Below, one piece after another: positions 5,908-55,248 of a stretch of 64,000 bases of DNA (positions are counted from its first letter, which is position 1; each line of letters starts with the position of its first letter). The notes below the pieces were generated by a model. The model searched no databases, was not told the origin of the DNA, and worked only from the letters and a program-made list of their open reading frames with translations. The position numbers and the translations under genes are program-made. The stretch spans positions 24,118,001 to 24,182,000 of the forward strand of contig NC_083286.1 in assembly GCF_963506605.1 (NCBI RefSeq). The letters run 5' to 3'. This DNA comes from Zootoca vivipara (taxonomy: Eukaryota).

Positions 5908-6775
5908 ACAAGAACATAATATGAGCCTGCTGGATCAGACCAATGGCCCATTTAGTCCAGCATCCTGTTCTCACATTCCCCCCACCCCAATCCCTGTGGG
6001 AAGCCTGTGTCAGGGATTGTATTGAAGAGCAGGAGGAATTGTGGAGGAAGAAGGGAATCTCAATTTACAGGGCTTTGAGGAACATAGCAGCTCAGAGACA
6101 GGTGAACAGCAGAGTTATGCTGTGTTAGGAGCAGGAGGGGAAGCAGAGCAGCTAGCTGACATGTCACTGGACAGCATCACCGACCCTCCTTCTCCCAAAA
6201 GACGGAGTTCGATAAGGGTGGAAGAACAAAGAGCACAGAGACAATTGTCCACGGACAGACGCCGTAGAAGCAGGTGTTACTAGAGAGGGAAGGGAGAGGG
6301 GTTCAGTGCGAGCAACTCCATTATGGAGGAATAACCAGAATTCTTCGTCTTTTACCGTGATGACTGAATAAATCATACGTAAGAACTTTCTTGTTTCCTC
6401 CCTGCCTCTTGGTGCTGTCGGGGGGGGGGGATCCCTCAAGCCTAACAGCCTGCAAGCTGGACATGAGCGCAAAGCATTTCCAGCAACTGTTGTTCAAATA
6501 TATGCTGCCTCCAACTGCAAAGGCAGAGCATAGCCCTCATAGCTAGTAGCCCTTGATAGCTTTATCCTCCATTAATTTGTCTAAGCCATCCAGGTTTGTC
6601 TAAACCATCACTGCGTCCTATGGAAGCAAGTTCATCACTTATGCACTGTGTGAAAATGTACTTTCTTTTATCTGTCCTGAATCTTCCAACACTGAGCTTC
6701 ACTGGATGTCCATGAATTTTGGTGTTAGGTAAAAAGAGGTGAAAACTTTCTTCTATCCACTTTATCCATGCCAAG
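5908..6775 (-). mobile_element. CR1 LINE 3' fragment, interrupted by a solo LTR
   Basis: Minus-strand peptide NTKIHGHPVKLSVGRFRTDKRKYIFTQ resembles the CR1 ORF2 C-terminus. The sequence is continuous across the 6008-6447 insert. Confidence 0.75.
6008..6447 (+). mobile_element. Solo LTR (probably Gypsy-type) with internal ORF
   Basis: Termini TGTCAGG...CCTAACA, 5-bp TSD GCCTG (6003-6007 and 6448-6452), AATAAA at 6367, ORF at 6041-6283. Confidence 0.8.
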
Positions 6776-7575
6776 CGAAATTTGAAGGAAGTGTCATCAT
6801 TGTCAATCATATTCATGCTCTTCTTCCTTAGATGTATCTTGAAGAAACTATGCATTTCCTTCTTTTACAGTTTGGATCTCGACGTCTTGAACCGAAGTTG
6901 CAAAAGTCTCAACACAAAGCTCCCAATATCCGTTGTATTACAGCCCAACTTACAGTTTTTTCCAGGAGATAGACTTCTGCTTGAGTTTATATTGCCAACA
7001 GTTGTAATTGGTGAAAGCTTTGTCGAGAGTTGTCATAAACACTCTTGGCTGGTTGGGGAATATGTAAGTGCTGCTCTGTACTTTATGAGAAGTAGCATAG
7101 ATTCATCCCTTTGGACTGCAGTCCTTGGGAGCAATAAACCCTTTGTAGTGTAGCTCCATTGATTATGTTCTTGTGGAAGAATCAAGCCAGATGAACATAG
7201 TTTTGGAAAGATAAACAAAAGGCTATAAAGGGTTATACAGCTGCCATTTGTTCTGATGAAGCTTGAAATGGAATCCAGTTCAAGAGTTCATGTAATAATA
7301 ATTTGAGGTGTTTGGAGAACTTCTTGTAATTTCTGCAATTGTTACACAACAGTACAATCACCTGAGATATTTGGAAATATCAGTGTAATTGCTACACAAC
7401 AATGGCTACAGACTTATATTTGCATATAGTGTATGTTCATTTTACACATACGGTAGTCTTGAATTTTTTGTGTTACTTTTATCCAATTTTCATTGTTGTG
7501 GGGGTTCCTGTGACTTGTCTGCTAAAAAACAAATAACAGAATAATTTGTAGCAGCCAAAGCAACAATATGGATCA

Positions 7576-8150
7576 TATAATCTTAGAATTAGAGAGCTGC
7601 AAGGGACCCCAAGGGTCGTGTAGTCCAACCTCCTCCAATGCAGGAATCTCAACTAAAGCATCCATGACAGATGGCCATCCAACTTCTTAAAAACCTCCAA
7701 AGGAGGAAAGTTCACCACCTCCCAGGGGAGTTCGCTCTGGTGTTGAACAGCTTTTACCATCAAAAAGTTATCCCTCATGTTTAGTCAGACTCTCCTTTCT
7801 TGCAACTTGAATCCATTTCTTTGGGTCCTACACCTTGGAGCAGAAGAAAACAAATTTGCTCCATCTTCCATGTGGCAGCCCTTGTTATATTTGAAAATGA
7901 CTATCATATCTCTTCTCCACCCCCTATTATCCAAGCTAAGCATACCCAACTCCCTCAGTTGTTCCTCATAAGGTTTGGTTTCCACACCCTTCATCATTCA
8001 GGTTGCCCAGCTCTGCACATGTTCTAGCTTGTCCATATCCTTCTTAATTTTTGGCATCCAGAACTGGACACAGTGCTCCAGGTGTGGTCTGACCAAGACA
8101 GAATAGAGTGGTACTATTACTTCTCTTGATCTAGATACTATAGTTCTGTT
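7576..8150 (-). mobile_element. CR1 LINE 3' fragment
   Basis: Minus-strand ORFs give [26 protein letters not shown] and KPYEEQLRELGMLSL..RTQRNGFKLQERR. A CR1 3' tail is present. Confidence 0.9.
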
Positions 8151-9356
8151 GGTGGACTGGATAATGACCAATAAACTAAAACTGAACCCTGATAAGGCAC
8201 ATTGCTGGTGGGTGGTTCCCACATCCAGCAATCAGGGAGGCAACCCATTATGAATTCATCTGATGTTATAAAGATGTCAGGTGATTGACACCTGTCAAAG
8301 CACAACTCTTAATACAACACTTTACACAGCACTCTCCAAGTGCCAAAAAAATCAACATTTTGGAATTGCTGTGCAAGGGTTTATCAGGCGTTCCATCAAT
8401 CCCCCTTTCACGCAGACATTTCTACACACTTTTCTTGATATTGTCTGAAGGGGCATGCAATTGCCACCATACATAGTCTTCCTTGGGTTCCATGATGGAG
8501 GAAACGTGGAACATGAATACAAGTAAGTAAGTAAATAAATACAACATTCAAAGAGCAAAGATTTCCCTTGTTCACTTCAGTTGTTCTTGTATTTTTTGTT
8601 TTAAGCCAGTAACATAACTCAAACTACTTAATTCAAATTATTTCCCCACCAAACTCTGCACCATTCCCTCCCCCCTTTCTCTTTTTTAACAGGCTTAATT
8701 TATAATGTTTTATTTCATTAAAGAATAAAAGACATTTTGACAATGGACGAGTGATACAGATCGTTTAATGCTCAGCTGTACCCATTATCATGAATTAAAA
8801 GAATTATATGTGGAATAGCAATCCCATCAGAACACAAGGCTTAATTGAATGGAAGTAGCCTGATAAATTGAGAGCTCTGTATGAAGCAATCATTTCTTAG
8901 ACTATAGCACACATGAGTTATAGCAGGAAGCATTCATGGGTAACATTTATTATTTTATATTGGGTTATTTTAAGGTTTTGCGATATGAAATGTAGGCACG
9001 GATTCTTTAGAACCACCAAGCCATATAACTCCCATTCACATTGATGAACCCAGAGGCAATGCACTGATTTATGTTTTCTTTCTGCAGTTGGAGCCAAAGA
9101 CAAACCACAAACATGCTTGAAAGAGTATGAGAAGTTCTTAATGCATACTTTGGGATGCCGGAAAACTTTATTCAGATTTATGTAGATCACTTTTTTCCAA
9201 AAAGCTCAGACAATAAGGTCCGTGATTTCAGTGCTGCATATTTTGTTAGCATGGTCAACCAATAATAAGGCAGTACTCTATGTCTAATATATGTTTTAAT
9301 GTACTTAGTTCTAATATTTTCACCAAAGCTTTTCTATAACATATACAATTAAGTGG

Positions 9357-10025
9357 AAACAAAATTTAAAAAAATCCTTCCAGTAGCACCTTAGAGACCA
9401 ACTAAGTTTGTCATTGGTATGAACTTTTGTGTGCATGCACACTTCTTCAGATACACTGAAACAGAAGTCACCAGACTGGGCACCACAGTTCAAGAAGGAT
9501 ACTGACAAGCTGGAACGTGTCCAGAAGAGGGCAACCAAAATGGTCAAAGGCCTGGAAACGATGCCTTATGAGGAACGGCTTAGGGAGCTGGGTATGTTTA
9601 GCCTGGAGAAGAGAAGGTTAAGGGGTGATATGATAGGATGTCATATAGAGGAGGGAAAAATGATGTTTTCTGATGCTCCAGAGAAGCGGACACGGAGCAA
9701 TGGATTCAAACTACAAGAAAGAAGATTTCACCTAAACATTAGGAAGAACTTCCTGACAGTAAGAGCTGTTCGGCAGTGGAATTTGCTACCAAGGAGTGTG
9801 GTGGAGTCTCCTTCTTTGGAGGTCTTGAAGCAGAGGCTTGACAGGCATATGGCAGGAATGCTTTGATGGTGTTTCCTGCTTGGCAGGGGGTTGGACTGGA
9901 TGGCCCTTGTGGTCTCTTCCAACTCTATGATCCTATGACCCTTATATATAGTGAGAGGGTGGGGAGGGGTATTACTCAGAAGGGTGGTGGGAATGGGTGA
10001 TTGGCTGATAGGTGTGGTAAACAAT
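9357..10025 (-). mobile_element. Penelope-like element pLTR fragment split by a CR1 insertion
   Basis: CCTTCCAGTAGCACCTTAGAGACCAACTAAGTTTG.. belongs to the same family as 33060-33275. A degenerate hammerhead motif lies at 9417-9454 on the minus strand. The continuation after 9938 is inferred. Confidence 0.7.
9476..9938 (+). mobile_element. CR1 LINE, 5'-truncated 3' end
   Basis: WAPQFKKDTDKLERVQKRATKMVKGLE..RKNFLTVRAVRQWN is the CR1 ORF2 C-terminus. The element ends ..TCTATGATCCTATGA. Confidence 0.92.
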
Positions 10026-10034
10026 TAAGGACAT

Positions 10035-10212
10035 AGATTAGTGTTAAAGCACATGCTTTGCATGTAAAAGGTCCCAGGTCCAATCCCTAGCATCTCCAGG
10101 AAGGGCTGAGAAATCCAGAAATCCTGGATAACCGCAACTAGTCTGTGTAGATGAACTTAAGCTATATAAGCCAATGGCCTGATTCAGTATGAAGCAGGCT
10201 CCAAACTTCCTA
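10035..10212 (+). mobile_element. Old tRNA(Ala-like)-derived SINE
   Basis: AGCACATGCTTTGCATGTAAAAGGTCCCAGGTCCAATCCC head. Homologous copies lie near 56845-57022, 62808-62975 and 63925-64000. Confidence 0.55.
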
Positions 10213-10613
10213 AGGTGGCTTTTCTGTGAAGCAATCCATCTCTCTGTGGCTTTCTAGGTAAATGTTGATGTGCATATCCTGATATTTCACCCATTATTAT
10301 CTCAAGTCTTTCTTTTCTATGTTAGCATATGAACAGCATATGTTTACCTACTTGTAGGTTAGATTGAATATTGTACCCTCTAAAATAATCTCCAAGATAC
10401 CTCCATTCTTCTCTTATCTTTATCTCATCGTTATTCCTCAGTTTTGGGGTCATGGTTACTAATTCTATGTATTCCATCAGTTTATTCTGCCAAATTTCCT
10501 TTGTGGGTTTCTCTTCTTTCCATATTTTCCGCATATACTATGCTAGCTGCAGCGGCCGTGTACAGAAAGATATTGAGTGCCTTTTTTGGAATGTCAAAAG
10601 GAATGTCTTTTTT

Positions 10614-10927
10614 CCCATTCTTAAGGAAATCAGCCCCGAGTGCTCACTGGCAGGACAGATCCTGAAGCTGAGGCTCCAATACTTTGGCCACCTCATGAGA
10701 AGAGAAGACTCCCTGGAAAAGACCCTGATGTTGGGAAAGATTGAGGGCACTAGGAGAAGGGGACGACAGAGGATGAGATGGTGGGACAGTGTTCTTGAAT
10801 CTACCAACATGAGTTTGACGAAACTGAGGGAGGCAATGGAAGACAGGAGTGCCTGGCGTGCTATGGTCCATGGGGGTCATGAAGAGTCGGACACGACTAA
10901 ACAACTAAACAACAACAACAACAACAA
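10614..10927 (+). mobile_element. BovB (RTE) LINE 3' fragment
   Basis: ILKEISPECSLAGQILKLRLQYFGHLMRREDSLEKTLMLGKIEG is near-identical to the C-terminus of the 30.7-32.1 kb copy. (CAA)n tail. Confidence 0.93.
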
Positions 10928-11334
10928 TTATTGCTAATAGAAAGGCCTCTGGACCTTTGGGAAATGCGAATTTAAAAATCTTTTTTAAATTCTGTGTAAA
11001 CCATTTACCAATGCTCTCTAGAATATGCTCTCTACATATGAATCAGGGTTTCCTTTACCTCAGGGCCCTTCCAGCACAAATTAGACCCTTTTTTGTATAC
11101 ATTCTCACTAATTTACTAGGTGTCAAGTCCCACCAGTACATCATCTTTTGTAGGTTTTCCTTAGTAAGATAACAGGCAGAGACATTCATTGTTTTCCCCC
11201 ATAATTTTTTCCCATTCTATGTTGTAACCAATATTGCCATCGTTGCCTTTACTCATCATTGGTCTCCCACTCCAGTAACAATTTATAAAATTTTGAGATT
11301 AATTAATTATCCTTTCCTATTACTTTTTTTTTTT

Positions 11335-11686
11335 GGGACCCAGGTGGCGCTGTGGTTAAACCACTGAGCCCTAGGGCTTGCTGATCAGAAGGTCGGCGGT
11401 TTGAATCCCTGTGACGGGGTGAGCTCCCGTTGCTTGGTCCCAGCTCCTGCCAACCTAGCAGTTCGAAAGCACGTCAAAATGCAAGTAGATAAATAGGAAC
11501 CGCTACAGCGGGAAGGTAAACGGCGTTTCCATGTGCTGCTCCGGTTTGCCAGAAGCAGCTTTGTCATGCTGGCCACATGACCTGGAAGCTATACGCCGGC
11601 TCCCTCGGCCAATAATGTGAGATGAGCGCGCAACCCCAGAGTCGGTCACGACTGGACCTAATGGTCAGGGGTCCCTTTACCTTTTT
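11335..11686 (+). mobile_element. Sauria SINE, full length
   Basis: GGGACCCAGGTGGCGCTGTGGTTAAACC head, central CCAACCTAGCAGTTCGAAAGCAC, tail ..GGGGTCCCTTTACCTTT. TSD TATTACTTTTTTT. Confidence 0.92.
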
Positions 11687-14039
11687 TATTACTTTTTTTA
11701 AAAAATAAAATAAATCTGAACTCATTTTCCCAAATCCCTTTTCCTTGTCTCTATTAAATAACTTGTTCAGCTGCATTTTAGAATAACTCAACAATATTTA
11801 AAAGGGCAATTTGGGGGAACTTGTAAATGAGAAGCAACCCATCAGGTTCATCTTTGTTAAAGATGTCTTCACAACAGGGTAGATTGGAAGGAGCTGTTCC
11901 TCCAGTCTGGCGGTGTTATAATCTGCACTTCAACAATCCCCAGTTCCACTCGAGGGGAGAATGAGGAATCTCCAAACAAACAAGATGATTAAATATAATC
12001 CACAAATCAGAATTCAGGCCCTTACTTGCAAACAGAGTCCACTGCCCTTTAGAGAATTTCTCAGGCTCTGTTAGCTTGACCTAAGCAAACAGGAGCAGGA
12101 CCATAGTGAAGAGTCACAAGGTGACAAAAGGAAGAATGAGATACTGAAATGCTGCTGCCTTACAGCTTCCCCAACCTCACAATCATTAAAAAAGTAAAAT
12201 GTCCAATGTTGTCAAATGCTAACACATATACTGTTCCTGTGCTCTTCTCCTACTTAGCTTTTTTTATTGCTCTTCAGAGTCAAAAAAGTTTTGATGGGTT
12301 TACAAAAGGGGCAAAAGAAAATTGAGTTCTGGAAGACTTAAAATAGCATTTTGTTTTATGGCAGCCGGAATTTGAGCAGGGAATTCATGAGGAGAGAATG
12401 AAAAAGAAAAGAAAAGCACAAACTGAAGTAAAACGATCAAAACAATTTGTGCCCCCGGATTTACATAACGGTGTACACACAATTTGATGTGTACAGTCTC
12501 AACTGGAAACAAAGGTCTGGCACACACACAAAGCGGAAGCAGATTTGAGGCCAGCTGGAGTTATGAATGGAGACCTGAATCCCTCTGCTGTGGCAAACTT
12601 GTATGATAACAGAAAGTGGTTTCCTCCCCTCTTCTTTCTCCTGCAGTTGTTTATTCAACAGAAATTCTTCTGATTTAAAATGTTTACTTTCCTCTTGGAA
12701 AGCCTGGGCACAATTTTTTATTTTTATTTTTAGGAATAATCAATTAAAATGATATTTTACAAGGCTTCCGGATGAAGCCAGATGATTCAAGAGCCTGCCT
12801 GGAAAAGAATAGAAGATGTACGGTACCTTGCCGAAGAAAGTGATTTAACTGAGAAAACAGAACGGTTGAAAGGGAATATAAAACACAACTAGGTAACACC
12901 ATCCAGTGGCCATACCCTGAAGCTCATACACATTCGATGCTTCGGGTACTCTATGTATCACAACTGAAGCCAGTTGGTGTATTCAGAGAGCTTTTATCTT
13001 CAGAAGCCCGAAATAATTGACAACTACATGCAAGGGAAACAAAAGCAACTGCTCCTTTCTTCCCATGCATTGTAAGTGAATTTTTTTTTTAATTAGGGAA
13101 GGAGCTAAAATCATTATAGCAATAAAAGAGAATCGAGATCTACAGGTTACACCCCAGCAATTGCTTTGGAAAAATACGCTCTGTGTGTAACATGAACAAA
13201 ATGACGCCATTCACATCTTCTGAGCTTTGTAAAAGGGCTTCAAAACAAAGTTCATGTTTGTACCTAGAAAATGTGTGTTGATTGAGAGGAGCGGCAGATG
13301 GCGAATTAAAGGTGCTAGTCTTCTTTAATGAAAAAAACTGCAATAAGGGGATGGGGGAATAGGGGGGGCTCCCCCTTTTTTGCAGCAAGAAGACCAGGTT
13401 TATCCAAAAGATACCCAAGAAGAATTTCGTAAAGTTTCTCCCAGTTATTTGTTTTGTTTTGTTGATGCACTTCCTTATCACAATTTCCGAAACACTAATT
13501 TTCTGGAGGACCTTGGGCCAGTCACTTGCTCATATCCTTGCCTACTTCACAGGGTTGGTGTAATGGTAAAAAAAAAGGGTAGCCGGTGAACAATGTATGC
13601 TGCCCTGAGAAAGGCCACCCCCATCAGTTTGCTGAGACTAAATGTGTCCCACCTGTTGAAGGAGGAAGCCTGGAGGTAATGGGGTGAGGGGTAAAAAAAG
13701 GGGGGTACTGCTTGGGCTAATAAACATGGGGGCTGGTATGCAGCATAAAAGGCAATGCCACCCTTGTGGTAGTGTGTACTTGGCCAGTCACCTTCAGGAG
13801 CTGAGTATGAAATTGGGAGCACCTCAGTTGCCCTTCAGGGTACTTCTTTGTCATAGGCTTGTGATGGGTTTGGGTTTCTGATTTGGCTATTTGGAGTTAA
13901 TTGCAATTGGCATTTAGTGTGGGCAAGGAAGTGATTTGGAGCTCTGGAATGCACCCCAGGGGTGGAGGGCAGTTCTCTGACCATTTCCTAGTGCTCTTGG
14001 GGCCTGATAGGTGCCAGGTGCTGAATGCTGGGCATTATT

Positions 14040-14067
14040 TATTGTTATTGCTGTATTATTACTGTAT

Positions 14068-14123
<56 letters not shown>

Positions 14124-14250
14124 TTCCCATCTGAATGGGTTGCCACAGCCACTCTGGGTGACTCCCAGAACAGGGCTGCCTTCAGACGTCTTTTAAAAAT
14201 CACATAGTTGTTTATCTGTTTGACATCTGCTGGGAGGGCATTCCACAGAA
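14040..14250 (-). mobile_element. L2-type LINE 3' fragment with (TAC)n microsatellite tail (about 14066-14123)
   Basis: Minus-strand WNALPADVKQINNY..FKRRLKAALF and CCCAGAGTGGCTG motif, shared with other L2 3' ends in the window. Confidence 0.7.
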
Positions 14251-16985: not shown

Positions 16986-17226
16986 CAGTGGTACCTCAGT
17001 TTAAGAGCAGCCCTGATTACAAACTATTCGGTTTACAAACTCCACAAAACCGGAAGTAGTGTCCCGGTTTGCGAACTTTACCTCGGTCTAAGAATGGAAG
17101 CCGAATGGTGGAAGGGCACCAGCGGTGGGAGGCCTCTTTAGGGAAAGTGTGCCTTGGTTTAAGAACAGCTTCGGTTTAAGAACGGACTTCCGGAATGGAT
17201 TAAGTTCATAAACCAAGGTACCACTG
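16986..17226. mobile_element. Tc1/mariner (Tigger-like) MITE
   Basis: TIR CAGTGGTACCT...AGGTACCACTG, flanked by TA on both sides. Confidence 0.88.
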
Positions 17227-17273
17227 TACCTGATGAAGGCCTTTGACCTTGTCAGCCAAAAAGGAATAAACAC

Positions 17274-17989: not shown

Positions 17990-18530
17990 AAAAAGGAATA
18001 ATCACACTGCTCAACACTGCCAAAGCTTCACAAGAAGATTGTGTCCTTCCGCAAGAACATGTGTGGCACTGTCCAATATCTGCTCATCTGCTCATCCTCA
18101 GATGCCTTCCCTATAAAGAGCAGCGTGAATCGGGGTTGCGTTCTCACCATGAGTAGATTCCAGGACCGGGATGCAAGAACAGCTCTGCAGAGTTAGCCTG
18201 TTGCCCAGGCAAGCACTGGTGGGCATATGAAAGCATTTTGTAGGTAGTCAACGTCAACACGTGTAACTAAAGAGGGAGAAGATAAAGGTCAAGTGGAAGG
18301 TAACTAAAGGAATCTAAAGGAATGTAATTCTAGCAACTGTCATCTCAAGGTTAACATACTGTTCCTTTTAAGGGCTTTATTATAGTCACCTAATAAAATG
18401 TTTAAAGGACTTAAATTATGAATCAGTATGATTCAAATAATGACAGAAGCATCTAGTGGGTAAACAGGATTTCTTTCTAAGGCAGATAATGCAGTTGAAA
18501 AGGGATAGGATAGGTACTTATAAAAATGTA

Positions 18531-18791
18531 CAGTGGAACCTCAGGTTGCGGACGTAATCTGTGATGGAGGCACATTCACAACCCGCAGCATTCATAACCT
18601 GCAGCACTGCATCTGCGCACGCGCGTGACACAATTTGGTGTTTCTGCGCATGCGTGAAACACAATTTAGTGCTTCTGCGCATGTGCAAGCGGTGAAACTG
18701 GAAGTAACCCTTTCCGGTACTTCTGCGTTTCCCGCGGTCCATAACCTGCAAATGCGTAACCTGAAGCTTCTGTAACCTGAGGGTACCACTG
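18531..18791. mobile_element. Tc1/mariner (Tigger-like) MITE
   Basis: CAGTGGAACC...GGTACCACTG, TA TSD, internal TGCGCATGCG repeats. Confidence 0.85.
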
Positions 18792-30134: not shown

Positions 30135-30666
30135 AGCCACTAATGATATCTATAGGTAAGCAAAGTGTGTCTGCTCAGGTGAAAGGAGGAAGAAGAGGTA
30201 TTCTTGCAGCCTAGAGTACCTAAAGCAACTGTTGATTTCAACTCCTAGAGTAGGCATATTTGATAGGGTATTTTGTTGCAGTGTGAAGAGAGAATAAATA
30301 CACAACTGCTAAGAACTTTTAAGTAGCATATGAATTTGACCAGATCTGACATTAAATATATACCTTAAGGAATAGTATCTTAAGGAGTAAAGATACAGAT
30401 TCCATTAGAAACATGTAAGTTCAAGCACAGTTTGGAATGAAAAATAAATGGAAATTGTCTCTGCCAATGTTCTTTTGTTTGTTCGCTTGATGAGGTAAGC
30501 TTTTGCAATTTTGGACAACATTTTAAACAAATCTACAGATTGAGAATATGAAAATCAGTGAAGGAATGAGGTTTCACTTACAAGAAACCAATATTGCCCA
30601 CAGCGATCTTGGCATATAGCATATATACATGACCTTACAACATTTTATTAAGACACATATAGAACA

Positions 30667-32067
30667 ATATGCCAGCAAGTTTGGAAAACTCAGCAATGGC
30701 CAGAGGATTGGAGAAGATCAGTCTACGTCCCAATTCCAAAGAAGGGCAGTGCCAAAGAATGCTCCAACTACCGCACAATTGCGCTCATTTCACACGCTAG
30801 CAAGGTTATGCTTAAAATTCTACAAGGCAGGCTTAGGCAGTATGTGGACCGAGAACTCCCAGAAGTGCAAGCTGGATTTCGAAAGGGCAGAGGAACCAGA
30901 GACCAAATAGCAAACATGCGCTGGATTATGGAGAAAGCTAGAGAGTTCCAGAAAAACGTCTACTTCTGCTTCATTGACTATGCAAAAGCCTTTGACTGTG
31001 TCGACCACAGCAAACTATGGCAAGTTCTTAAAGAAATGGGAGTGCCTGATCACCTCATCTGTCTCCTGAGAAATCTCTATGTGGGACAAGAAGCTACAGT
31101 TAGAACTGGATATGGAACAACTGATTGGTTCAAAATTGGGAAAGGAGTACGACAAGGTTGTATATTGTCTCCCTGCTTATTTAACTTATATGCAGAATTC
31201 ATCATGCGAAAGGCTGGACTAGATGAATCCCAAGCAGGAATTAAGATTGCCGGAAGAAATATCAACAACCTCAGATATGCAGATGACACAACCTTGATGG
31301 CAGAAAGCGAGGAGGAATTAAAGAACCTTTTAATGAGGGTGAAAGAGGAGAGCGCAAAATATGGTCTGAAGCTCAACATCAAAAAAACCAAGATCATGGC
31401 CACTGGTCCCATCACCTCCTGGCAAATAGAAGGGGAAGAAATGGAGGCAGTGAGTGATTTTACTTTCTTGGGCTCCTTGATCACTGCAGATGGTGACAGC
31501 AGTCACGAAATTAAAAGACGCCTGCTTCTTGGGAGAAAAGCAATGACAAACCTAGACAGCATCTTAAAAAGCAGAGACATCACCTTGCCGACAAAGGTCC
31601 GTATAGTTAAAGCTATGGTTTTCCCAGTAGTGATGTATGGAAGTGAGAGCTGGACCATAAAGAAGGCTGATCGCCGAAGAATTGATGCTTTTGAATTATG
31701 GTGCTGGAGGAGACTCTTGAGAGTCCCATGGACTGCTAGAAGATCAAACCTATCAATTCTTAAGGAAATCAGCCCTGAGTGCTCCCTGGAAGGACAGATC
31801 GTGAAGCTGAGGCTCCAATACTTTGGCCACCTCATGAGAAGAGAAGAATCCTTGGAAAAGACCCTGATGTTGGGAAAGATTGAGGGCACTAGGAGAAGGG
31901 GACGACAGAGGACAAGATGGTTGGACAGTGTTCTCGAAGCTACGAACATGAGTTTGACCAAACTACGGGAGGCAGTGCAAGACAGGAGTGCCTGGCGTGC
32001 TATGGTCCATGGGGTCACGAAGAGTCGGACACGACTAAACGACTAAACAACAACAACAACAACAACA
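30667..32067 (+). mobile_element. BovB (RTE clade) LINE, 5'-truncated, young
   Basis: Uninterrupted frame from 30667 to the stop at 32046, (CAA)n tail, TSD ATAGAACA (30659 and 32068). Confidence 0.96.
30808..32046 (+). CDS. BovB reverse transcriptase, partial (TE-encoded, no endonuclease or promoter in this copy)
   Basis: 412-aa ORF with QAGFRKGRGTRDQI, FIDYAKAFD, GVRQGCILSP and LRYADD reverse-transcriptase motifs. Confidence 0.9.
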   Translation: MLKILQGRLRQYVDRELPEVQAGFRKGRGTRDQIANMRWIMEKAREFQKNVYFCFIDYAKAFDCVDHSKLWQVLKEMGVPDHLICLLRNLYVGQEATVRTGYGTTDWFKIGKGVRQGCILSPCLFNLYAEFIMRKAGLDESQAGIKIAGRNINNLRYADDTTLMAESEEELKNLLMRVKEESAKYGLKLNIKKTKIMATGPITSWQIEGEEMEAVSDFTFLGSLITADGDSSHEIKRRLLLGRKAMTNLDSILKSRDITLPTKVRIVKAMVFPVVMYGSESWTIKKADRRRIDAFELWCWRRLLRVPWTARRSNLSILKEISPECSLEGQIVKLRLQYFGHLMRREESLEKTLMLGKIEGTRRRGRQRTRWLDSVLEATNMSLTKLREAVQDRSAWRAMVHGVTKSRTRLND

Positions 32068-38735: not shown

Positions 38736-39347
38736 TGTGATGGCCTGAGACTCGGACTCGGACTCAGAGCCGGAGGAATCACAGCCTGTACTGGACCCTC
38801 TGCCCAGAACATTGGCTGAACCTAGTCTGGGGCCTGTTTCTGAAGAGCCTCAGTCTGCTCAGGCTCCCCTGCAACAAGGACCAGCTGGGCAGAGTCAGGG
38901 GCCTGAGCCTGTCCTGGCTCCAGGTGCTGAGAATACCTCATTGTCGACAGCTGGTCCACTACCAGCTAGATCAGGAGAGGCTGAGGTGGCTCCTGGGTCC
39001 AGTAACCCTCCGGCGTCTCCCGAGCTGCAGAGACTCAGGGCTGAGAGGAGGCAAGACCTGAGTACTTGCAGGAGGAGTGCTCGCCTTCAGGCAAGGCAGG
39101 GTGGTGAGTCATCGGTGGATCGGGACCAGCCATTACCTCGTCAGAGATAAAAGGTGGTTAGACCCCGCCCCAGGTTGCGGGAGAAACATTGCTATTTGCC
39201 AGATCCTGCCTGTGTTCCTGCTCCCAACCTTGTCTAGTTTCCTGCCCTGCACCCTGCCTCAGCTTCATTGGACTGACCCCTCGTTGATTCCTTAGACTTT
39301 GGACCGACCCTGGACCTCACCTCTTGGATTACCCTTGGACCAGCACA
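38736..39347 (+). mobile_element. Solo LTR (probably Gypsy-type) with internal ORF
   Basis: TGTG...CACA termini and 5-bp TSD CTTCT (38731 and 39348). Frame 38740-39150 has a single early TGA. Confidence 0.82.
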
Positions 39348-41259: not shown

Positions 41260-41261
<2 letters not shown>

Positions 41262-41297
<36 letters not shown>

Positions 41298-41410: not shown

Positions 41411-41504
41411 TAAAATCATATTTGAAGTTCAGTGACATAGCATGCTACAGAGGTTATGGAAATTTGAAGAAAGGTGCAAAAGTGTGCATATGAACCTACC
41501 CAGT

Positions 41505-46614: not shown

Positions 46615-46859
46615 TTCCTGCCAACCTAGCAGTTCTAAAGCACAAAGTGCAAGTAGATAAATAGGTACCGCTCCGGCGGGAAGGTAAACGGCGTTTCCAT
46701 GTGCTGCTCTGGTTCGCCAGAAGCGGGTTAGTCATGCTGGCCACATGACCCGGAAGCTGTACGGCGGCTCCCTCGGCCAGTAAAGTGAGATGAGCGCCGC
46801 AACCCCAGAGTCGTCCGCAACTGGACCTAACGGTCAGGGGTCCCTTTACCTTTACCTTT
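46615..46859 (+). mobile_element. Sauria SINE, 5'-truncated
   Basis: CCTGCCAACCTAGCAGTT..(ACCTTT)n with TSD TTAACCTGGA. Confidence 0.9.
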
Positions 46860-46993
46860 TTAACCTGGATAATAGGTAGCAAGAGTAAAGAGACATAAGT
46901 CAGGATAATATACCGGCATACAGTGCTTTTCTGCTGGTATCATGGGGGAATTATGGGGGGCAAAACTGGAGCATGCATGTGCATAAAGGGTAT

Positions 46994-47049
<56 letters not shown>

Positions 47050-47050
47050 C
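46994..47050. repeat. (AAC)n microsatellite
   Basis: Direct reading of the sequence. Confidence 0.95.
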
Positions 47051-47757
47051 GTTGTCCAGTGATGGTTGCTGTACTACAGTGCGAAAGTAACTTTAGAAAA
47101 CAGGACGAAAGCACTAGCATTATATCCAGGAAAACAAACACACACAAAATCACATACTTCTGACTTCACCTGTTGTTGGATCAACCTGAATCCTAACTCA
47201 CACCAATCCCAGTCAGCATGGCTAACGAGAAGGGTTTATTGAAGTTGTTTTGTTTAAACTGATTTTAATATGGTTGTAACCCACCCTGGGGCCTCATCTA
47301 AATCTAAATTAATAATAGTAGTGGTGGTAATAATAGCAGTAGCAGTAATTGTAGTACAACAGCATATGGCCACAGGTTCCCCACGTGTAAAGTACAAAGA
47401 ATGCTAGAAAAAATGGCCCCCACATAAAGACGTATTCCTGTCATGTCCATAATGTCTAGAAATGGCTATCTTGTCCCTAGTATTCTGTGTTTCCACAACA
47501 GTGACAGGCATCTCTGGACAAGGTAACGATGGTGTGAGATTGGCTGGAAAAATGAAATAAGGCCTTTTCTTGAACAGTACTCCACTGCCTAGGCGGACCC
47601 ATCAAGTGACTTCCCTCATTTCTTTCTGCCAACAGGTGATAAAAAAATGTTTCTTCTACAGAAGCTCTTTTGCTCTTTCATTATGCTCTCTTTTGCATAA
47701 TATATTTTCAATTGTTCATATTACTTTTTGTATTTTTTTAAAAAAATGTTTATAAAT

Positions 47758-48033
47758 AACTGAGATCCAGTGCCGAGGGCCTTCTGGCGGTTCCCTCACT
47801 GCGAGAAGCAAAGCTACAGGGAACCAGGCAGAGGGCCTTTTCGGTAGTGGCACCCGCCCTGTGGAACGCCCTCCCATCGGAGGTCAAGGAGATAAACAAC
47901 TACCTGACATTTAGAAAACACCTAAAGGCAGCCCTGGTTAGGGAAGTTTTTAATCTGTGATATTTTAATGTATTTTGGTATTTGCTGGAAGCCGCCCAGA
48001 GTGGCTGGGGAAACCCAGCCAGATGGGTGAGGT

Positions 48034-48075
<42 letters not shown>
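47758..48075 (+). mobile_element. L2-type LINE 3' fragment with (AAT)n tail
   Basis: Encodes GLLAVPSLREAKLQGTRQRAFSVVAPALWNALP and ends CCCAGAGTGGCTGGGGAAACCCAGCCAGATGGG..(AAT)n. Confidence 0.85.
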
Positions 48076-48387
48076 TTTGATAAATTGTCTTAGCATGAGA
48101 GTAATTAATAGGAAGTTCATAAACTGAATCTATACGTTGAAGCAAGTGAGTTGTGGGGAAGGGGATAAGAAGGAAACAGATGTATGTGGGAGGCCAAACA
48201 TGATGTTTCTGGAAAGGTTAAGGAAGGAAGGAATCCTACTCAGGAAAAGGAACTTTAGTTTCTTGGAATTTTGACATTTTTGTTGAAGACTCCAACACAA
48301 ATGGAAGGACTCCTTGTGATTAAATATATATATTTCAGTTTTAAAGTTAAGAAGAAAGGTTTTAAGGGAGTTAAGCATGCTTACAAG

Positions 48388-48518
48388 CAGTGTTATTTTT
48401 GTAGAAGGTGCCGGAACTCACCATGAACGCCTCCCTTGTTCTCTTATCATGGCAATGGTGTCCACCTGAGAGGTGCCAGAAATGAGTTCCATTGAGTTGC
48501 GGCTGAAGAAAAGCCCTG
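48388..48518. mobile_element. hAT MITE
   Basis: CAGTG...CCCTG termini with perfect 8-bp TSD CTTACAAG. Confidence 0.8.
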
Positions 48519-49864
48519 CTTACAAGAAACTAAAAAGCAGAAAAGGTAAAGGACAAAACCATTACTGTTCTTCATTGTCATCTCAGGGGATGGTAATCGC
48601 GTCGGGTAAATTGGGATGTGATCTCAGCTTTTAGGGATTCATTTCAAAACATATTCAGGATCTTCAGCCTTACACTGGAAGGAGATGGAGAAATTTCAAA
48701 AAGTAATGATCTCCAGGGAGGAAACTGCAGGAAACACAGATTATAGAGCAGCATCACCATCAAATTCAGAGATGGGTATTCCTCTGCCCTTGCAAGAGTA
48801 AAGGTGAAGGCCAACAACAGGATAAAGAAAAGAAAATAGAGTGGATAAAAAGCCATGAGACGAAATACATTTTTGAGATTAAATGTTGAGCTTCTTTATT
48901 TTATGTAATCTGCTCAGTATCATGCACTGTTTGCTAATCCTCTTGCCTAATGCTCAATAAGTGAATTTGTCCAGCAGTCATAATGAAGTTGGCTTAATTT
49001 CCTCCCACCTCTTTAACATTTATCAGCATTCTCCCCCCTAAAAAAGCTTCATTCCTGTTGTCAGAGTGCTTTTTAATATAAATATCTGCACTTATTTGTC
49101 ACAGTGGTATTTAGAGAACCTAATAGATAAGGAATAATCATGCATCTACAAATAATACATACAGAAATGTTAATAAGGCTCCAGAGGTCATCATTCATGC
49201 AACTATTAACATTAAAATAAAGACATTGTTTTCTTGCAATCCAGTACATCTGGCGCTCATATTTAAAAGTTTACAAGAGACTGTGGGGGCAATCTACAAA
49301 TGCAGTTACCCACATCAAGTCATTTCAGTGGGATTTCTACTATGCATGTGGTAATGAAATAAATAAAGTACAGCAGTGGTTCTTAATTGACTGATGCTCC
49401 TCTAATTTGTACTTTATGGTTAGTGGCTATTTTGTATTTTGTCCCACCCTGCTTGAAGGAAGGAGGAATGAAGTGCCTCTGGTGCTAACAGAGAAGTTAG
49501 TGAATGGGAAAATAGGATAACGGGATAGAGGTACTTGTCTGCCTTTCAAGGAAGGCATTGTCTCTTCACCAAGGAGTGGCCAATCATCACCGTCAGTGCT
49601 TTGAGCATGGGATGATGGAGCTGTTTCATGATACTGGCAGCTAGGAACACTTTTTTGTTGTTTTTGAAAGAAGCGGGAGGGATACAACTTGGTTTGGGAT
49701 GACTTGCAAACTTGCTTGGCCTTAGCTGACACGTCAATGCAAGCAGGGAGACATTTAAGCATAGGCTACTTGGGTCAGCACACTCCTCAGTTGACGACTG
49801 CCATTACATACCATCCAACATTTTGGGAGCGCAAGTCGGGACACACACCCCATCATGCCCACCT

Positions 49865-50532
49865 ATCAGGAAGAGAGCAGAGAGAATTGCTGTAGACCCT
49901 TCGCATCCTGGTCATCACCTGTTTGATTTACTCCCATCCGGACGCCGGTACAGGACTCTATATACAAAAATGTCCAGGCACAGGAATAGCTTTTTTCCTT
50001 GTCCCATCAAATTGTTGAATCTGTAGTTGTGGGCGAAATGGAAGCCAGTTGGTGGTATGGGGTTTTTCACTGTGCTGTTGTATTGTGAGGGGGATAGTGT
50101 TTGTATGAGGTACATTTTCCTTTACATTGCATTGTAGTTGAAGCAAAATTCCAAGTATGGTTGATACTTGGCCAAAAATTTCTATTCTATTCTATTCTAT
50201 TCTATTCTATTCTATTCTATTCTATTCTACAGTGGTGCCTCGCTAGACGAATTTAATTCGTTCCATGGGTCTTTTCTTATAACGAAAAATTCATCTAGCG
50301 AATTCCATAGGAATGCATTGAATTTTTTTTGAATTATTTTTGCCCATAGGAACACATTAATTGAATTTCAATGCATTCCTATGGGAAACCGCGATTCGCT
50401 AGACGAATTTTTCATAAAACGAATTCGTCTAACGAGGCAATCTCCGCTCGAAAAATCCTTTCGTTAAGCGGAAATTTCGTTAAGCAGGGCATTCGTTAAG
50501 CGAGGCATCACTGTATTCTATTCTATTCTATT
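49865..50532 (+). mobile_element. Rex1/Babar LINE 3' fragment with (TTCTA)n tail
   Basis: DPSHPGHHLFDLLPSGRRYR..RHRNSFFP..IKLLN is the Rex1-type C-terminus. The pentanucleotide tail at 50180-50532 is interrupted by a MITE. Confidence 0.82.
50230..50513. mobile_element. Tc1/mariner (Tigger-like) MITE
   Basis: TIR CAGTGGTGCCTCGCT...AGCGAGGCATCACTG, TA TSD. Confidence 0.9.
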
Positions 50533-50697
50533 CTCTGATTGCTTTCTCCCACCCTCCTGCCTGATCTCCACACTATTTCAGCCACCCAAGCCCAATCTCC
50601 TCTGCAGCCACCAGGGTGAGCATGAAGCCTCCTTTGCCACTGCTGCTCCAAGGCTGAGGACTCCTCTGCCACTACTGCTGTGATGACAAGGCCTCCT

Positions 50698-50950
50698 GGG
50701 AGCCAGCGTGGTGTAGTGGTTAAGAGCAGTGGACTCGCAATCTGGTGAACCGGGTTCGCTTCCCCACTCCTCCACATGCAGCTGCTGGGTGACCTTGGAC
50801 TAGTCCCACTTCTCTGAAGTCTCTCAGCCTCACTCACCTCACAGAGTGTTTGTTGTGGGGGAGGAAGGGAAAGGAGATTGTCAGCCGCTTTGAGACTCCT
50901 TCAGGGGAGTGAAAGGCGGGATATCAAGTCCAAACTCCTCTTTCTCTTCC
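50698..50950 (+). mobile_element. tRNA-derived CORE-type SINE (Squam3-like)
   Basis: Highly similar to 42199-42449. Confidence 0.8.
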
Positions 50951-53351
50951 TCCTCCATGAGGCCTTCACTGAAGCCTGTCGCAGGTGCTGACATACTTCC
51001 AGAAGCTGACACTGGCTGACATCATTGGCCTTGACGGGCCTCAGCGGAGGCCTCACCACAACAAAGGAGGCCTCACCCTCATCATGGCAGTGTGGGAGGA
51101 AGAGAGACACCTGGGATTTCAAACAAAACCAAGATGGCTTCTGTAAATCTGGGATGTCCCACTCAAAGTGGGACAGTTTGCAGGTATGCTATTACCACTA
51201 TTTCTGTACTGCACTACACTTCCTGACTCATGACCAAATCTATTTAACATACCACCCTATTCAACCATGCTTATCATTCCCCTAGGTACAGTAACAGAGT
51301 AGGTGAAAATGTTCACAACCCATGACCAATCTGGGCAATTAGAAAAACCTACTTGTCCCTGAACTGACTGGAATTGCAATGCTATAGAAGGGCTGCCACA
51401 CTATGGGAAGGAAATATATCAGGATTTGAGGTGCCACCACTTTACATAGTGCTGCTTTCCCCACCCCACACTGTAAGGATACTGATGCTCTTGCAAACAT
51501 CACCTTGATCCAGAGGTGGCCAAGCCATCACTGCCCCTCACCACCCTTCGGATACCTGGAGAAGGGGGACAAACATATTAACATTATCCAAAGTGCAGAC
51601 ATGTATAGCTTTGATTCTGCTCATGCCAGCGTCATCTTTGCATCTGTATTCACACAGCAATGCCATGTGTGAGCAGGTGCATGCCAGTCAGCACGTCATG
51701 CTTTGTGCAGCTGGCTATATTATTTTTGATCACATTAATCACTGATCACATAAACTGTAAAAACTAGACGACTGGGCTACATGTTACTTTGTTCACATGT
51801 CATACAGATAATGGCTCCCATTGTAACACAAGAACCAGCCTTGAGATGGCAACTGCTTCCCACACGTATTTTTTTGGGGGGGGGGGGCTGGAAGTCAGCT
51901 ATTCCTAAATATCTCTTGACAGTGGAAGTAGAATAATTCCGAGCCAATTTTCTCCTTCATCACACATCTTCAGAAAGAAACAGCATGAGACGTGTGTAGG
52001 ACGTAGAACTGCTGTGGCCAGGGAACAAGCAACTGATTATGAATCTGGCTCATCTGCTTCTCTTGTTCCACTTGGCAGAATAGATTAGCTTTTATTTCAA
52101 AGTGAGGGTATTGGATAACTCTCCAGGATTACACTGAACTCTGTTTGTAATTAAACATAGGCACAAATTAAATATTATACTTTTACCATTTCAGACTTGA
52201 GTAATCCAATAAAAGTTCAGGTTTCGCATTCAGTGGTGGCTCAGATAGGACTCAGGATTGGATTCAAGGCTGCATTCAGACGTGGGTTTTATTGTGTTAG
52301 TTTCAGTGGTTGTAATGTGAGATCTTCTGTCCTGATTTTTAATGTTCTTTTTACACTGCAATGCCTGCTGCATTATCAAACTGTGGCTTTGTGATAAACA
52401 TACCTCTGCGTCGCACTAAATTTTAAATGGTGTGAAATAACTCTATGGCAGGATACCGCCCCAAATTTTGTTACGTGAAATTACAGCCCCAAACTCTCCT
52501 GGAGTTAATGATTCCCCCCTCCCCCGAAAACAATTAACATGGAAATGAGCCCTAAGCTTCTACTAAATTTCCAGGCAGCATTTATGTTATGTCAAAGATC
52601 CCATAAAATGTGAGCATTAACAGATAAGGAACCATCAGGAAAATAGAGGAAAGTGTCTGCATGCACCCCAAGTGAAACATTTCTCAAGGCAGGAGGCAGG
52701 ATGGGGAGACTGTGGTCCTTCAGATGTTGACGGACTGTAACGACCATCAGTCCCAGCTAACAGTCCGAACTAAAAAGACCCGGTGTGGTCATTTTTTATT
52801 TTCAAAAATTTCATACATCTCTCCATTTGCCTACTCCAATTCAGGTAAGAATATTTATTCTCATGCTATATGTTGGAAGGACCAGAGGCTTTACTGTCAC
52901 TCCTGGAACAAATCCAGGCACCATTATTACTATGCATTGTTTAAATAAAATCTGCAGTGGAATGTTTTCTCGTAGCTCACCAATAATTGTATCGACACAA
53001 CTATTTCTCCCAGCTCTGCTTTTCCACAGGGTTTTTCAAAGAACTTGGCCGCAAATTGTTAGATTATTGGTATCACTGCTTTGGCTGCATCTGACATCTT
53101 CAGTGTCACGCTGTAATATTCCTGTGACTTTACTGGTAAAGAAAAGTCATCAGAAAAGTCAGGATCACTTAACCCTGAAATTTCAGATAGCTCAATCGAT
53201 TGCTGCTTGCACAGAATACATCATTACCTAGCTCTAGACAGGAGGATGAACTTCTATCATGTTTAAAGAGCCCACCTTTCCTCTTTGTACGAGGGACATA
53301 TTCATTTTGTCAATGGATATGGTTAAAAGAAAACACAAAGATCTCTCTCTG

Positions 53352-53443
53352 AGGCTGCAATCCTAACCCCACTTACTTGGAAGTAAGGCCCATTGAATTC
53401 AGTAGGACTTACTTCTGAGTGGACATGGAATGGATTCTGCTGT
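53352..53443. repeat. Short palindromic interspersed repeat (MITE-like), paralog at about 35332-35420
   Basis: GCTGCAATCCTAACCC..AAGTAAGGCCCATTGAATTCAGTAGGACTTACTT.. forms an imperfect palindrome. Confidence 0.5.
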
Positions 53444-53749
53444 AAATCTTTAAGGCATCGACTTTTTTTTGTTACTGAAGATGATTAGTCAATAGAATGA
53501 AGTGACACAATTAGGATAATAGAACACTGGTGAACCAGTTGCTTCTAGCCTTAGATGAAGAAAATGAAGAAGAAAAAGAGGAAGAACAAGGAGAAGAAGA
53601 AATCTTTCTGCCTGAAAGTGACAGGGCTGATCCAAAATTGTTTGTCATTTTTTAATTTCTTTTTTGGAGGGAGGAGGTAGGGTTGGTCTGATATCTGATA
53701 ATGGTGTGAGATCCGAAGGACAAATGTCCATGGCACAGACACCATATTC

Positions 53750-53885
53750 CAGGCACCCCCAAACTTCGGCCCTCCAGATGTTTTGGCCTACAACTCCCAT
53801 GATCCCTAGCTATCAGGACCAGTGGTCAGGGTTGATGGGAATTGTAGTCCAAAACATCTGGAAGGCCGAAGTTTGGGGATGCCTG
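53750..53885. mobile_element. Palindromic hAT MITE
   Basis: TIR CAGGCA(C/T)CCCCAAACTTCGGCC, TSD CCATATTC/CCCTATTC. Confidence 0.92.
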
Positions 53886-54169
53886 CCCTATTCAGCATCC
53901 GCTCCATTCATGAAGGGGAAGCAGATCCATACCAATATTGCTATGCCTCTATCCCCCTGCCCCAGCAGTGGGACCTCTGCAAAAGTGCATGCAGCTGGTA
54001 ACAAGTAGGCACCCGTTGTCAGGCATCACTCTGTATATGCAGAGCCTGAGAATGGGTCCACAATGTCAGGTGCAACCACAGATATGGTCCCACTCTTCCC
54101 TCATTTCATTTAGCCTACATTAGTATGATGAAGAAAACTACCCTTCAGGAATTCACCATACACTTACAG

Positions 54170-54305
54170 CAGGCATCCCCAAACTGCGGCCCTCCAGATG
54201 TTTTGGCCTACAACTCCCATGATCCCTAGCTAACAGGACCAGTGGTCAGGGATGATGGGAATTGTAGTCCAAAACATCTGGAGGGCCGAAGTTTGGGGAT
54301 GCCTG
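54170..54305. mobile_element. Palindromic hAT MITE
   Basis: TIR CAGGCATCCCCAAACT, perfect TSD ACTTACAG. Confidence 0.93.
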
Positions 54306-54552
54306 ACTTACAGGATAGGGTTGTTTGTTTGTTTGTTTTTGTTTTTTGTAGAAGGTATACTTTGCACTTCTGTGTGCCATTTCCTTTAACTAGTCAATAA
54401 CACATGGGGGGGTTAACCCCTTTTCTTTTCCCCACGGGTAAGTACACAGTTTTAAAAGAGCAAGAGAATGAGCAAATGAGGGCTGGCTGGTTACAAATGT
54501 GTTCATTGTGCATTTCCTCAAACTGAAAAGCTCAATTCAAAATCTGATCCTA

Positions 54553-55248
54553 TGTCAGGCTTCAGGGAATCAGCTTCCTCCCCCCTTGTGGCAGCAGATA
54601 AGCAGAACAAAGGAAAGGAGTCTTCTTAACCAGTCAGAAGCTTTAATAATCACAGTGAGAGAACAAAGTACACATCTCCCAGAAATGGAGGTGTTCCCAA
54701 TTAAGTTCCCTCCCCTCTCCGTCCCTGTTAAACTACGTCATTCCTACGTTTTGTAATCTGAGCTTGGAGCTGCTGTGTTTTCTGTGTTGACACTTTCTGA
54801 GCTCTCTGGGACTTTGAGGGAGGTGTGTGTGTGGATACTATCCAGAGACTGTGAATCTGTTAACTCTCTCTCTTCTAGTGCTTCTTCTGCTAGCTGTTCC
54901 CCACCGAGTATTTCCCAGCTTCTCTCTTCTGAACTATGCCCCTATGGAAACCACTGTTCCAAATCTATACAATGGTGCCTCGACTTACGAAGGCGATCCA
55001 TTCCGCAGTGCTCTTCGTAAGTCGAAGTCTTTGGTTGTCGAAGCAATTTTGTGCTTCTGCGCATGCGCAGCGCGCACGGCGAATAGACTTCCGGGTTTTC
55101 CGACTTCGTAAGTCGAAACCTTCGGAAGTCGAGTCATTCGGATGTCGAGGTACCAATGTACTGTTTTCTTGCTCCTGGGAAGATTAGACGGAGGGCTGGT
55201 TCGCACCATTCTTCCTATGTGCAGCCCTCCTCAACATGGTCACTGACA
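54553..55248 (-). mobile_element. Solo LTR related to 6008-6447, with nested MITE and decayed internal ORF
   Basis: TGTCAG...CTGACA termini, 5-bp TSD TCCTA (54548 and 55249), minus-strand ATTAAA. Its 3' end ..CCCTGAAGCCTGACA resembles ..CCCTCAAGCCTAACA. Confidence 0.8.
54970..55158. mobile_element. Tc1/mariner (Tigger-like) MITE
   Basis: CAATGGTGCCTCGAC...GTCGAGGTACCAATG, TA TSD. Confidence 0.85.

Follow-up and report, generated by a model that had tools for sequence, protein, structure and literature searches.

Coding sequence that overlaps the U3 region of the 3′ LTR is known from HIV nef and MMTV sag, both of them distinct genes, each with a start and an mRNA of its own. A Pol frame that itself enters the LTR has a known precedent in the plant CRM group A, where a centromere-targeting CR motif takes the place of the chromodomain and a tRNA (tRNA-Met) serves as primer. 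In the Copia superfamily, the integrase C-terminus of Ty1 is long and disordered, with basic NLS elements and a short tethering motif, as described in the excerpted text of PMC10050235. The Tf1/sushi group of the fungi/vertebrate cluster combines a CCHC Gag, separate overlapping gag and pol frames, the order PR-RT-RH-IN, a C-terminal chromodomain, a self-priming PBS complementary to an LTR segment, and a 5-bp TSD (excerpts of bioRxiv 10.1101/2022.12.06.519325 and PMC4600332). The elements described here share all these features but, unlike that group, carry an acidic/Pro/basic extension of ∼100–140 codons past the chromodomain, which fills U3. Among the matches listed, fish relatives run on for only ∼40–45 residues after the chromodomain, and our literature searches found no earlier description of the long tail.

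We analysed three solo LTRs (A, B, and C) in a 64,000-nucleotide stretch of Zootoca vivipara DNA (the window), together with their families and relatives. We propose, with a probability of roughly 0.78, that their U3 frames are remnants of a C-terminal Pol tail of Tf1/sushi-type chromoviruses, a tail that would serve nuclear import or chromatin tethering of the integrase.

Structure of the three solo LTRs

The first-pass annotation had reported three TG..CA elements with 5-bp TSDs, and their coordinates, ends and TSDs proved exact (Table 1). The assignment as solo LTRs rests on these features and on B LTRs at both ends of a full-length element (L091); no 5′ junction of an A or C LTR was found, while A/C-type LTRs do follow a chromodomain and polypurine tract (PPT). 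All three U3 frames begin at LTR base 2. The peptides described earlier are present in the window, but all three window copies are broken. As also noted before, B has no DNA similarity to A or C at E ≤ 0.01, and B and A peptides align weakly (E 0.02–0.6 among the matches listed). A and C are related subfamilies with weak DNA similarity, E going down to 6e-9 among copies.

Table 1. Positions of the LTRs, frames and signals within the window
Feature	Position	Strand	Remarks
Solo LTR A	6008-6447	+	A/C lineage, chromovirus-type; TSD GCCTG at 6003-6007 and 6448-6452
Broken U3 frame of A, probable Pol-tail remnant	6009-6283	+	No ATG; frame shifts near the start, after ∼14 codons; stop ends at 6283
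Solo LTR B	38736-39347	+	TSD CTTCT; same LTR family as the full-length decayed element L091
U3 frame of B, 137 codons	38737-39150	+	ATG 38740-38742; premature stop 38746-38748 (codon 4) in the window copy; terminal TAA 39148-39150
TATA-like GATAAAA in B	39146-39152	+	Overlaps the B-frame stop codon; putative function, from its position ∼30 nt before the self-primer
Likely self-primer and transcript start of B	39177-39187	+	Complement of the PBS in L091; probable U3/R border
Solo LTR C	54553-55248	-	A/C lineage; TSD TAGGA
Broken U3 frame of C, probable Pol-tail remnant	54728-55247	-	No ATG; interrupted by the 193-bp insert, two further stops and a frame change
193-bp TA-flanked insert in C	54968-55160	.	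Terminal inverted repeats of ∼24 bp

Coding signal in the LTR families

The three LTRs belong to dispersed repeat families with 249 (A), 243 (B), and 1606 (C) first-look candidates, of which 40 copies each were scored; a TSD with at most one mismatch was present at 56 of 90 fetched loci. The open base-2 frame is more than composition. In none of the families did it contain a codon column with a stop in most copies, whereas the other two frames held 5 and 5 such columns in A, 2 and 9 in B, and 5 and 8 in C, and a stop-free run of matching length arose in 64–82 of 5000 dinucleotide-matched simulations. Of 18 A copies, 4 had intact runs of 106–133 codons, and 9 of 25 B copies kept the frame open as far as its usual stop. 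One of 18 A copies and one of 27 C copies had a Met among the first 30 codons.

Solo-LTR variants common to at least three copies gave an omega of 0.32 (A), 0.51 (B), and 0.53 (C), private variants one of 1.2–1.3. When pooled, 55 of 122 shared variants were synonymous against 35.9 expected, a value reached by 1 of 5000 simulations, while selection in B and in C taken singly is marginal (p 0.03–0.06). The synonymous excess in shared variants and a dN/dS below 1 in three element pairs (see below) bear out the earlier suggestion of a coding U3 frame and show that purifying selection acted on it in the elements from which the LTRs derive. The acidic, Pro/Ser, basic layout and its place in a squamate Ty3/Gypsy lineage were likewise recovered. 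The indel test suggested with it gave no signal (multiples of 3 in 7/19 shared and 31/82 private indels), because homopolymer slippage dominates.

The first-pass annotation had named as its refuting condition that the pattern is purine-rich composition only, which would leave it without a coding history. A and C are 55–59% purine, the GC-rich U3 of the L208 type is stop-free by chance in 8–11% of simulations, and the null indel test would also agree with composition. However, Pol and this frame form one continuous reading frame in five intact elements, and the synonymous excess is confined to the base-2 frame, so that we find this explanation hardly credible; unless the alignments are wrong, it is refuted by Pol continuity, dN/dS and synonymous excess.

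Pol of intact relatives reads into the 3′ LTR

Five intact young relatives, with LTR pairs 98.5–100% identical, carry Pol frames of 1339–1381 codons. In all five, Pol is stop-free through the chromodomain and PPT and ends 94–105 codons inside the 3′ LTR, LTR base 2 being codon position 1. The tail ends in a basic block, and its second half has a net charge of +6 to +12 in each of the five. Of 13 young copies fetched, 11 kept the tail open throughout. Full Pfam domain scans covered two of the five (L173 and L208) and found PR, RT, RNase H, integrase, SH3 and chromodomain upstream of the tail; the C-terminus of a further element, L172, was scanned as well.

The order PR-RT-RH-IN with a C-terminal chromodomain (Pfam on L173, L208 and the L172 C-terminus; order read in the decayed L091) identifies these elements as Ty3/Gypsy chromoviruses. 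Self-priming is indicated by perfect PBS complements of 10–12 nt in six of six elements examined, B included, and between L208 and L209 a matched change occurred on both sides of the PBS/self-primer pair. A, B, and C likely derive from Tf1/sushi-type chromoviruses, with self-priming seen in B and relatives, A and C placed via their lineage, and trees built from local copies and database matches.

In one element pair the dN/dS of the U3 tail was 0.25 (p=2e-6), against 1.35 and 1.22 in the shifted frames, and two further pairs gave 0.40 and 0.20, where the protein-guided alignments used for two distant pairs bias dN/dS downward. The tail of L208/L209 combines a dN/dS of 0.16–0.25 with a high dS of 0.53–0.73, the basic half (0.16) being lower than the first half (0.39), while the intact pair L173/L175 gave 0.84, which is not significant. 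Part of the tail conservation is not protein-level, since the tail end overlaps the TATA-like box and self-primer in the intact relatives. In B and the five intact relatives, for which a transcript start could be placed, the frame lies upstream of it or ends just inside. In three RNA runs, of which ∼6% each was read, the intact L208 family had no GT..AG joint into U3 among those listed; the reads came mostly from 90–99% relatives, fell on both strands and say nothing about translation. On record, no RNA run carrying the L208 stretch was listed.

Could the tail be incidental read-through, i.e., a Pol without an earlier stop, whose added peptide does little more than remain open and accommodate the promoter and primer signals beneath it? 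The ratio for L173/L175 and the coincidence of some basic codons with the GATAAA/AATAAA box would fit, but constraint on DNA signals would not give the L208/L209 values. Tails of different families have almost no sequence in common among the matches listed, and yet the basic end recurs in families of unrelated DNA. Family D spread without such a tail, and the short run-ons of the fish relatives point the same way, whereas similar tails exist in two other squamates, fused to Pol in XP_061449381.1 (Rhineura, worm-lizard) and KAM3854145.1 (Vipera). The lack of Pfam or atlas matches is also consistent with read-through: Pfam found none for the three LTR peptides, and the ESM atlas gave low recognition of B (best score 0.81). 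A word-based search of longer proteins with the chromodomain-plus-tail region retrieved nothing among 888 candidates, which is weak evidence. Altogether we consider incidental read-through unlikely.

Frames of the A/C lineage

Nine of 13 decayed junctions of the A/C lineage were in frame with Pol, and 8 of 11 when three neighbouring paralogs are counted as one (p=0.009 against 1/3), with the proviso that the protein query behind the junction search already held the fused frame and could favour in-frame matches. Six junctions read without a stop from the chromodomain into the LTR. The frame of L172 spans 939 codons and closes with an acidic/Pro/basic tail, whose alignment to the A and C peptides beats all of 1000 shuffles. 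L129, a C-like junction copy, is in frame with its chromodomain, and over 534 bp its LTR shares 76% identity with C copies. For family A proper no junction copy was found, the nearest being 67–80% relatives; one lead (L092) was rejected as another LTR subfamily beside a partial A LTR.

It is very probable that the frames of A and C are Pol tail. The stand-alone small accessory protein proposed in the first pass does not hold for them, as they lack a start codon and their relatives continue the Pol frame. In this A and C differ from nef and sag, which only B might resemble.

Proposed origin and role of the tail

From established retroelement biology, genomic RNA would hold U3 at its 3′ end only, and the tail would therefore be translated as the end of Gag-Pol, while reverse transcription would place U3 in both LTRs. 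LTR–LTR recombination would then leave tail codons in solo LTRs, upstream of the promoter and, in A and C, without a start codon, where they would decay neutrally. The idea that solo-LTR formation spreads a gene stands for the DNA, which is copied, but the tail is cut off from its start codon.

The acidic, then Pro/Ser-rich, then basic tail may be a disordered nuclear-import or chromatin-tethering module of the integrase. This predicted role, suggested by basic clusters in the sequence and by analogy, seems to us slightly better than an even bet. Its functional model is the Ty1 C-terminus, which differs in superfamily, in not being LTR-encoded and in lacking a chromodomain; no homology is claimed. 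As in CRM group A, Pol enters the LTR in the five intact relatives, a likeness of architecture, but these elements retain a Pfam-positive chromodomain ahead of the PPT, with the tail added after it, and their PBS is self-priming.

If the Pol-tail reading is correct, most of U3 in these vertebrate chromoviruses doubles as integrase coding sequence, and the last Pol codons of the intact relatives also contain a TATA-like box and the self-primer, a compact overlapping coding. The tail becomes a candidate for how still-intact elements reach or choose chromatin, in parallel to the plant CR motif and the Ty1 tail. The same reading corrects a tempting misreading as an accessory gene and would explain gene models that start in LTRs.

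Fused tail or separate gene in family B

L091, flanked by B LTRs, is a full-length but decayed gag-PR-RT-RH-IN-chromodomain element. Pattern and protein searches led to the same two B junctions, neither of them in frame (0/2): one junction has the chromodomain frame meeting the LTR at base 1, the second at base 3. For B, a Pol tail is the mildly favoured assignment, and a separate ATG-initiated gene is possible. In B only, the tail would have turned into an independent gene of 136 codons, starting from an ATG of its own at LTR bases 5–7, a reading that we hold to be doubtful; similarly tentative are its routes of expression, stop-start reinitiation after Pol (TGA at bases 3–5 overlapping the ATG) or a candidate spliced RNA.

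In 23 of 25 B copies the second codon is Met, in the context G-x-x-ATG-G, as expected for a separate gene. However, this ATG lies within the integrase attachment end, the Sushi 5′ motif TGTYANR (PMC3601003), so a translational reason is unneeded. Pol of junction copy L094 ends at a TGA overlapping the B ATG, but the L091 junction is in the third frame and at least one B junction copy is therefore decayed. Shared B variants also argue for a gene (32/77 synonymous vs 24.2 expected, reached by 98 of 3000 simulations), while the base-2 frame is identical to that of all fused relatives.

An integrase tree grouped B with family D against A/C and the young families (split support 100), and Pol of D ends before the LTR, stopping ahead of the PPT in 13 of 13 junctions listed, which would favour a separate gene in B. 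With outside sequences added, the B+D grouping was unsupported and B joined the Rhineura protein with only 41% support. The tail of the latter begins GRGAGDS-VMAPSEDSS, much like B, and this VMA-type start is fused to its chromodomain, which argues for a Pol tail. Alignment of the B peptide to the fused tails of L208 and L172 beats 998 of 1000 shuffles; to the Rhineura and Vipera tails it does not beat them (121 and 79 of 1000). A B-profile search among longer proteins yielded a single match, a gene model in which the LTR peptide is linked to Gag, and did not retrieve a Pol fusion. In Podarcis muralis, a gene model opens with a MAWDSD peptide resembling that of B (46% identical), as a separate gene might, but the entry is a computed model joined to Gag and not expression evidence.

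The wider scenario, in which squamate chromoviruses evolved a U3 integrase tail for nuclear entry or targeting that split off in B as an independent small nuclear protein via stop-start reinitiation at the extreme end of the LTR, is rather improbable in our view. If true, B would have gained a nef/sag-like gene by fission of Pol within a Ty3/Gypsy element, and would provide a rare example of Pol giving rise to an accessory gene. Since the whole frame, ATG included, is present in each B solo LTR (open in 9 of 25 copies examined), host read-through transcripts could then express the protein from many sites.

The insert in the window copy of C (Table 1) is presumably a Tc1/mariner-type MITE, judged by its ends.

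Results

Three solo LTRs, A, B and C, were present where the first-pass annotation had placed them, each between exact duplications (table). They belong to dispersed families with 249 (A), 243 (B) and 1606 (C) candidates, of which 40 per family were scored and 30 fetched as loci, and target site duplications (TSD) with at most one mismatch were found at 56 of the 90 fetched loci. A and C have common termini and weak DNA similarity, while B is, as noted before, without DNA similarity to either. Among copies with both ends located (18 A, 25 B, 27 C) each of the three families shows a long frame that begins at LTR base 2; no codon column of this frame holds a stop in most copies, and the other frames have 2-9 such columns. 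The window copies are all broken, so nothing intact is encoded by the window itself. LTR C also carries an insert, short pieces of which match elsewhere in the window, and a further open frame resembles a non-LTR reverse transcriptase, putatively RTE/BovB-like by its motifs.

Coordinates of LTRs and associated features (window positions unless a locus is named)
Feature	Position	Strand	Length	TSD
Solo LTR A	6008-6447	+	440 bp	5 bp, exact
Solo LTR B	38736-39347	+	612 bp	5 bp, exact
Solo LTR C	54553-55248	-	696 bp, including insert	5 bp, exact
TA-flanked inverted-repeat insert in C	54968-55160		193 bp	
Short matches to the insert	near 18631-18687			
Reverse transcriptase-like frame	30652-32043	+	464 codons	
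LTR of additional subfamily	L092:2514-3054	-		
Co-varying primer	L208:5726-5736			

A search for chromodomain-PPT-LTR junctions yielded 13 copies that have a placeable LTR start and belong to the A/C lineage or lie close to it; L152, L148, L158 and L159 (junction deleted or unplaced) and the young families were left out of this count. The LTR lies in the chromodomain's frame in nine junctions, six of them without any stop between the two, and off-frame in four; merging neighbouring paralogs (3 of 13) leaves 8 of 11 in frame (p=0.009). L129, the junction copy nearest to C with 76% over 534 bp, keeps the frame, and this search found no junction of A proper. Locus L172 has a 939-codon frame from RT into the tail, which aligns to A/C better than 1000 of 1000 shuffles. 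In five intact elements of three young families (L173, L174, L175, L208, L209; LTR pairs 98.5-100% identical) Pol ends 94-105 codons inside the 3' LTR, with LTR base 2 always at codon position 1. The tail carries a net charge of -9 to 0 over its N-terminal half and of +6 to +12 over the C-terminal half. In contrast, the Pol stop of chromovirus family D precedes the PPT in 13 of 13 junctions among those listed, nine of which have a TATA-like box at base 149-195. Since most junctions are in frame, Pol of the intact elements continues into the LTR and the U3 frames of A and C lack an ATG, the ORF of A and C is very probably the end of Pol. Of the small U3-coded accessory protein proposed in the first-pass annotation, the coding, selected U3 frame stands, but not its independence from Pol in A and C.

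In family D (L101, L096 and others) the Pol stop directly follows the chromodomain and an ATG stands just ahead of the PPT G-run, whose length differs between copies; short frames of 34-53 codons then enter U3. Two large young chromovirus families in the genome set searched have dozens of copies with open Pol frames of 1369 or 1379 codons; a long acidic linker (dN/dS 0.17-0.30) separates their chromodomain from the PPT.

For family B the searches found only two junctions (L091, L094), neither of which shows a fusion. In L091 the chromodomain frame runs onto LTR base 1, in L094 onto base 3, and due to these different frames at least one copy is decayed. In L094 the Pol TGA overlaps an ATG at LTR bases 5-7, as if the B frame were split from Pol, and in a tree of local copies B groups with D, apart from the fused families, a grouping that is not robust after adding outside sequences. 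The B motif PPASPELQRLR resembles PPTPELRRKRR of the fused L208 tail (2 of 1000 shuffles). A Rhineura protein (XP_061449381.1) has a chromodomain fused to a tail that starts with GRGAGDS-VMAPSEDSS and ends with PPSPAECRQQKVRQKRGR. The layout recurs in a Vipera protein (KAM3854145.1); both are annotated gene models known without their LTR borders, and the B peptide aligns to them no better than to shuffles. We favour a B frame fused to Pol, with a probability slightly above one half; a split frame appears less likely and an independent small gene unlikely. A Podarcis muralis gene model (P0155, UniRef) opens with a B-like LTR peptide, followed by Gag. The nearest proteins that carry a species name suggest that the host is a squamate.

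L091 is a decayed 5.4-kb element (gag-PR-RT-RH-IN-chromodomain) with two B LTRs and the TSD CTGTG; one B copy is its 3' LTR. The PBS of L091 can pair with a stretch of the LTR that lies 30 nt downstream of a GATAAA box, and this position predicts a transcript start of B at about LTR base 442. The B frame (LTR bases 2-415), with its stop codon inside the TATA-like box, would then fill U3. A PBS/LTR complement of 10-12 nt was present in 6 of 6 elements examined, and L208 and L209 differ by a matched change on both sides. In the five intact elements the self-primer lies inside the final Pol codons; primer and PBS co-vary between L208 and L209, the encoded PLGG being unchanged. Self-priming and a chromodomain define the Tf1/sushi group (bioRxiv 10.1101/2022.12.06.519325, PMC4600332). 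An additional LTR subfamily has A/C-like ends, an acidic/basic U3 frame of its own, a PBS of the self-priming type and an open gag; its 3' end adjoins a partial A LTR.

The dN/dS below 1 anticipated for the U3 tail was observed between L208 and L209 (0.25, p=2e-6; shifted frames 1.35 and 1.22) and in two distant intact-subfamily pairs (0.40 and 0.20, alignment-dependent), yet L173/L175 gave 0.84, which is not significant; RT-IN values were lower (0.02-0.08). For solo LTRs we used non-CpG variants and took those shared by at least three copies to reflect source elements. Omega was 0.32, 0.51 and 0.53 for shared and 1.2-1.3 for private variants. With the exact mutation mix matched, 55 of 122 pooled shared variants were synonymous (35.9 expected), a value reached in 1 of 5000 simulations; per family it was reached in 9 (A), 315 (B) and 260 (C) of 5000, so that only A is clear, and in 98 of 3000 for B with 31 copies. 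The proposed bias of indel lengths to multiples of three in the frame gave no signal. The U3 tail is a coding region under loose constraint.

Discussion

A real, selected coding region overlaps U3, and an integrase tail probably explains most of it. As in the squamate elements, Pol reaches into the 3' LTR in plant CRM group A and some beet Bingo elements (PMC3059260, PMC3605345); in fish relatives Pol also overruns a PPT-like GGG stretch, for a short distance only. The literature covered, including PMC3601003, yielded no description of squamate Tf1/sushi elements in which a long acidic/basic tail follows a chromodomain that is itself intact, and an earlier mention is quite possible.

Genomic RNA of retroelements has U3 at its 3' end only, and the tail would therefore form the last part of Gag-Pol, its codons being copied into both LTRs. 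What the data show is the continuity of the Pol frame in relatives and selection on the tail. A solo LTR of A or C would retain tail codons without a start, its own promoter lying further downstream. By analogy with the plant CR motif and the Ty1 integrase C-terminus, which is disordered and NLS-bearing (PMC10050235), the basic end may be a nuclear-import or chromatin-tethering signal and the acidic part a flexible linker. RNA reads on L208 showed, at low depth, no GT..AG joint into U3. Reads entering its U3 from foreign flanks (71, 69 and 134), which say nothing on translation, are such as host read-through across solo LTRs would give.
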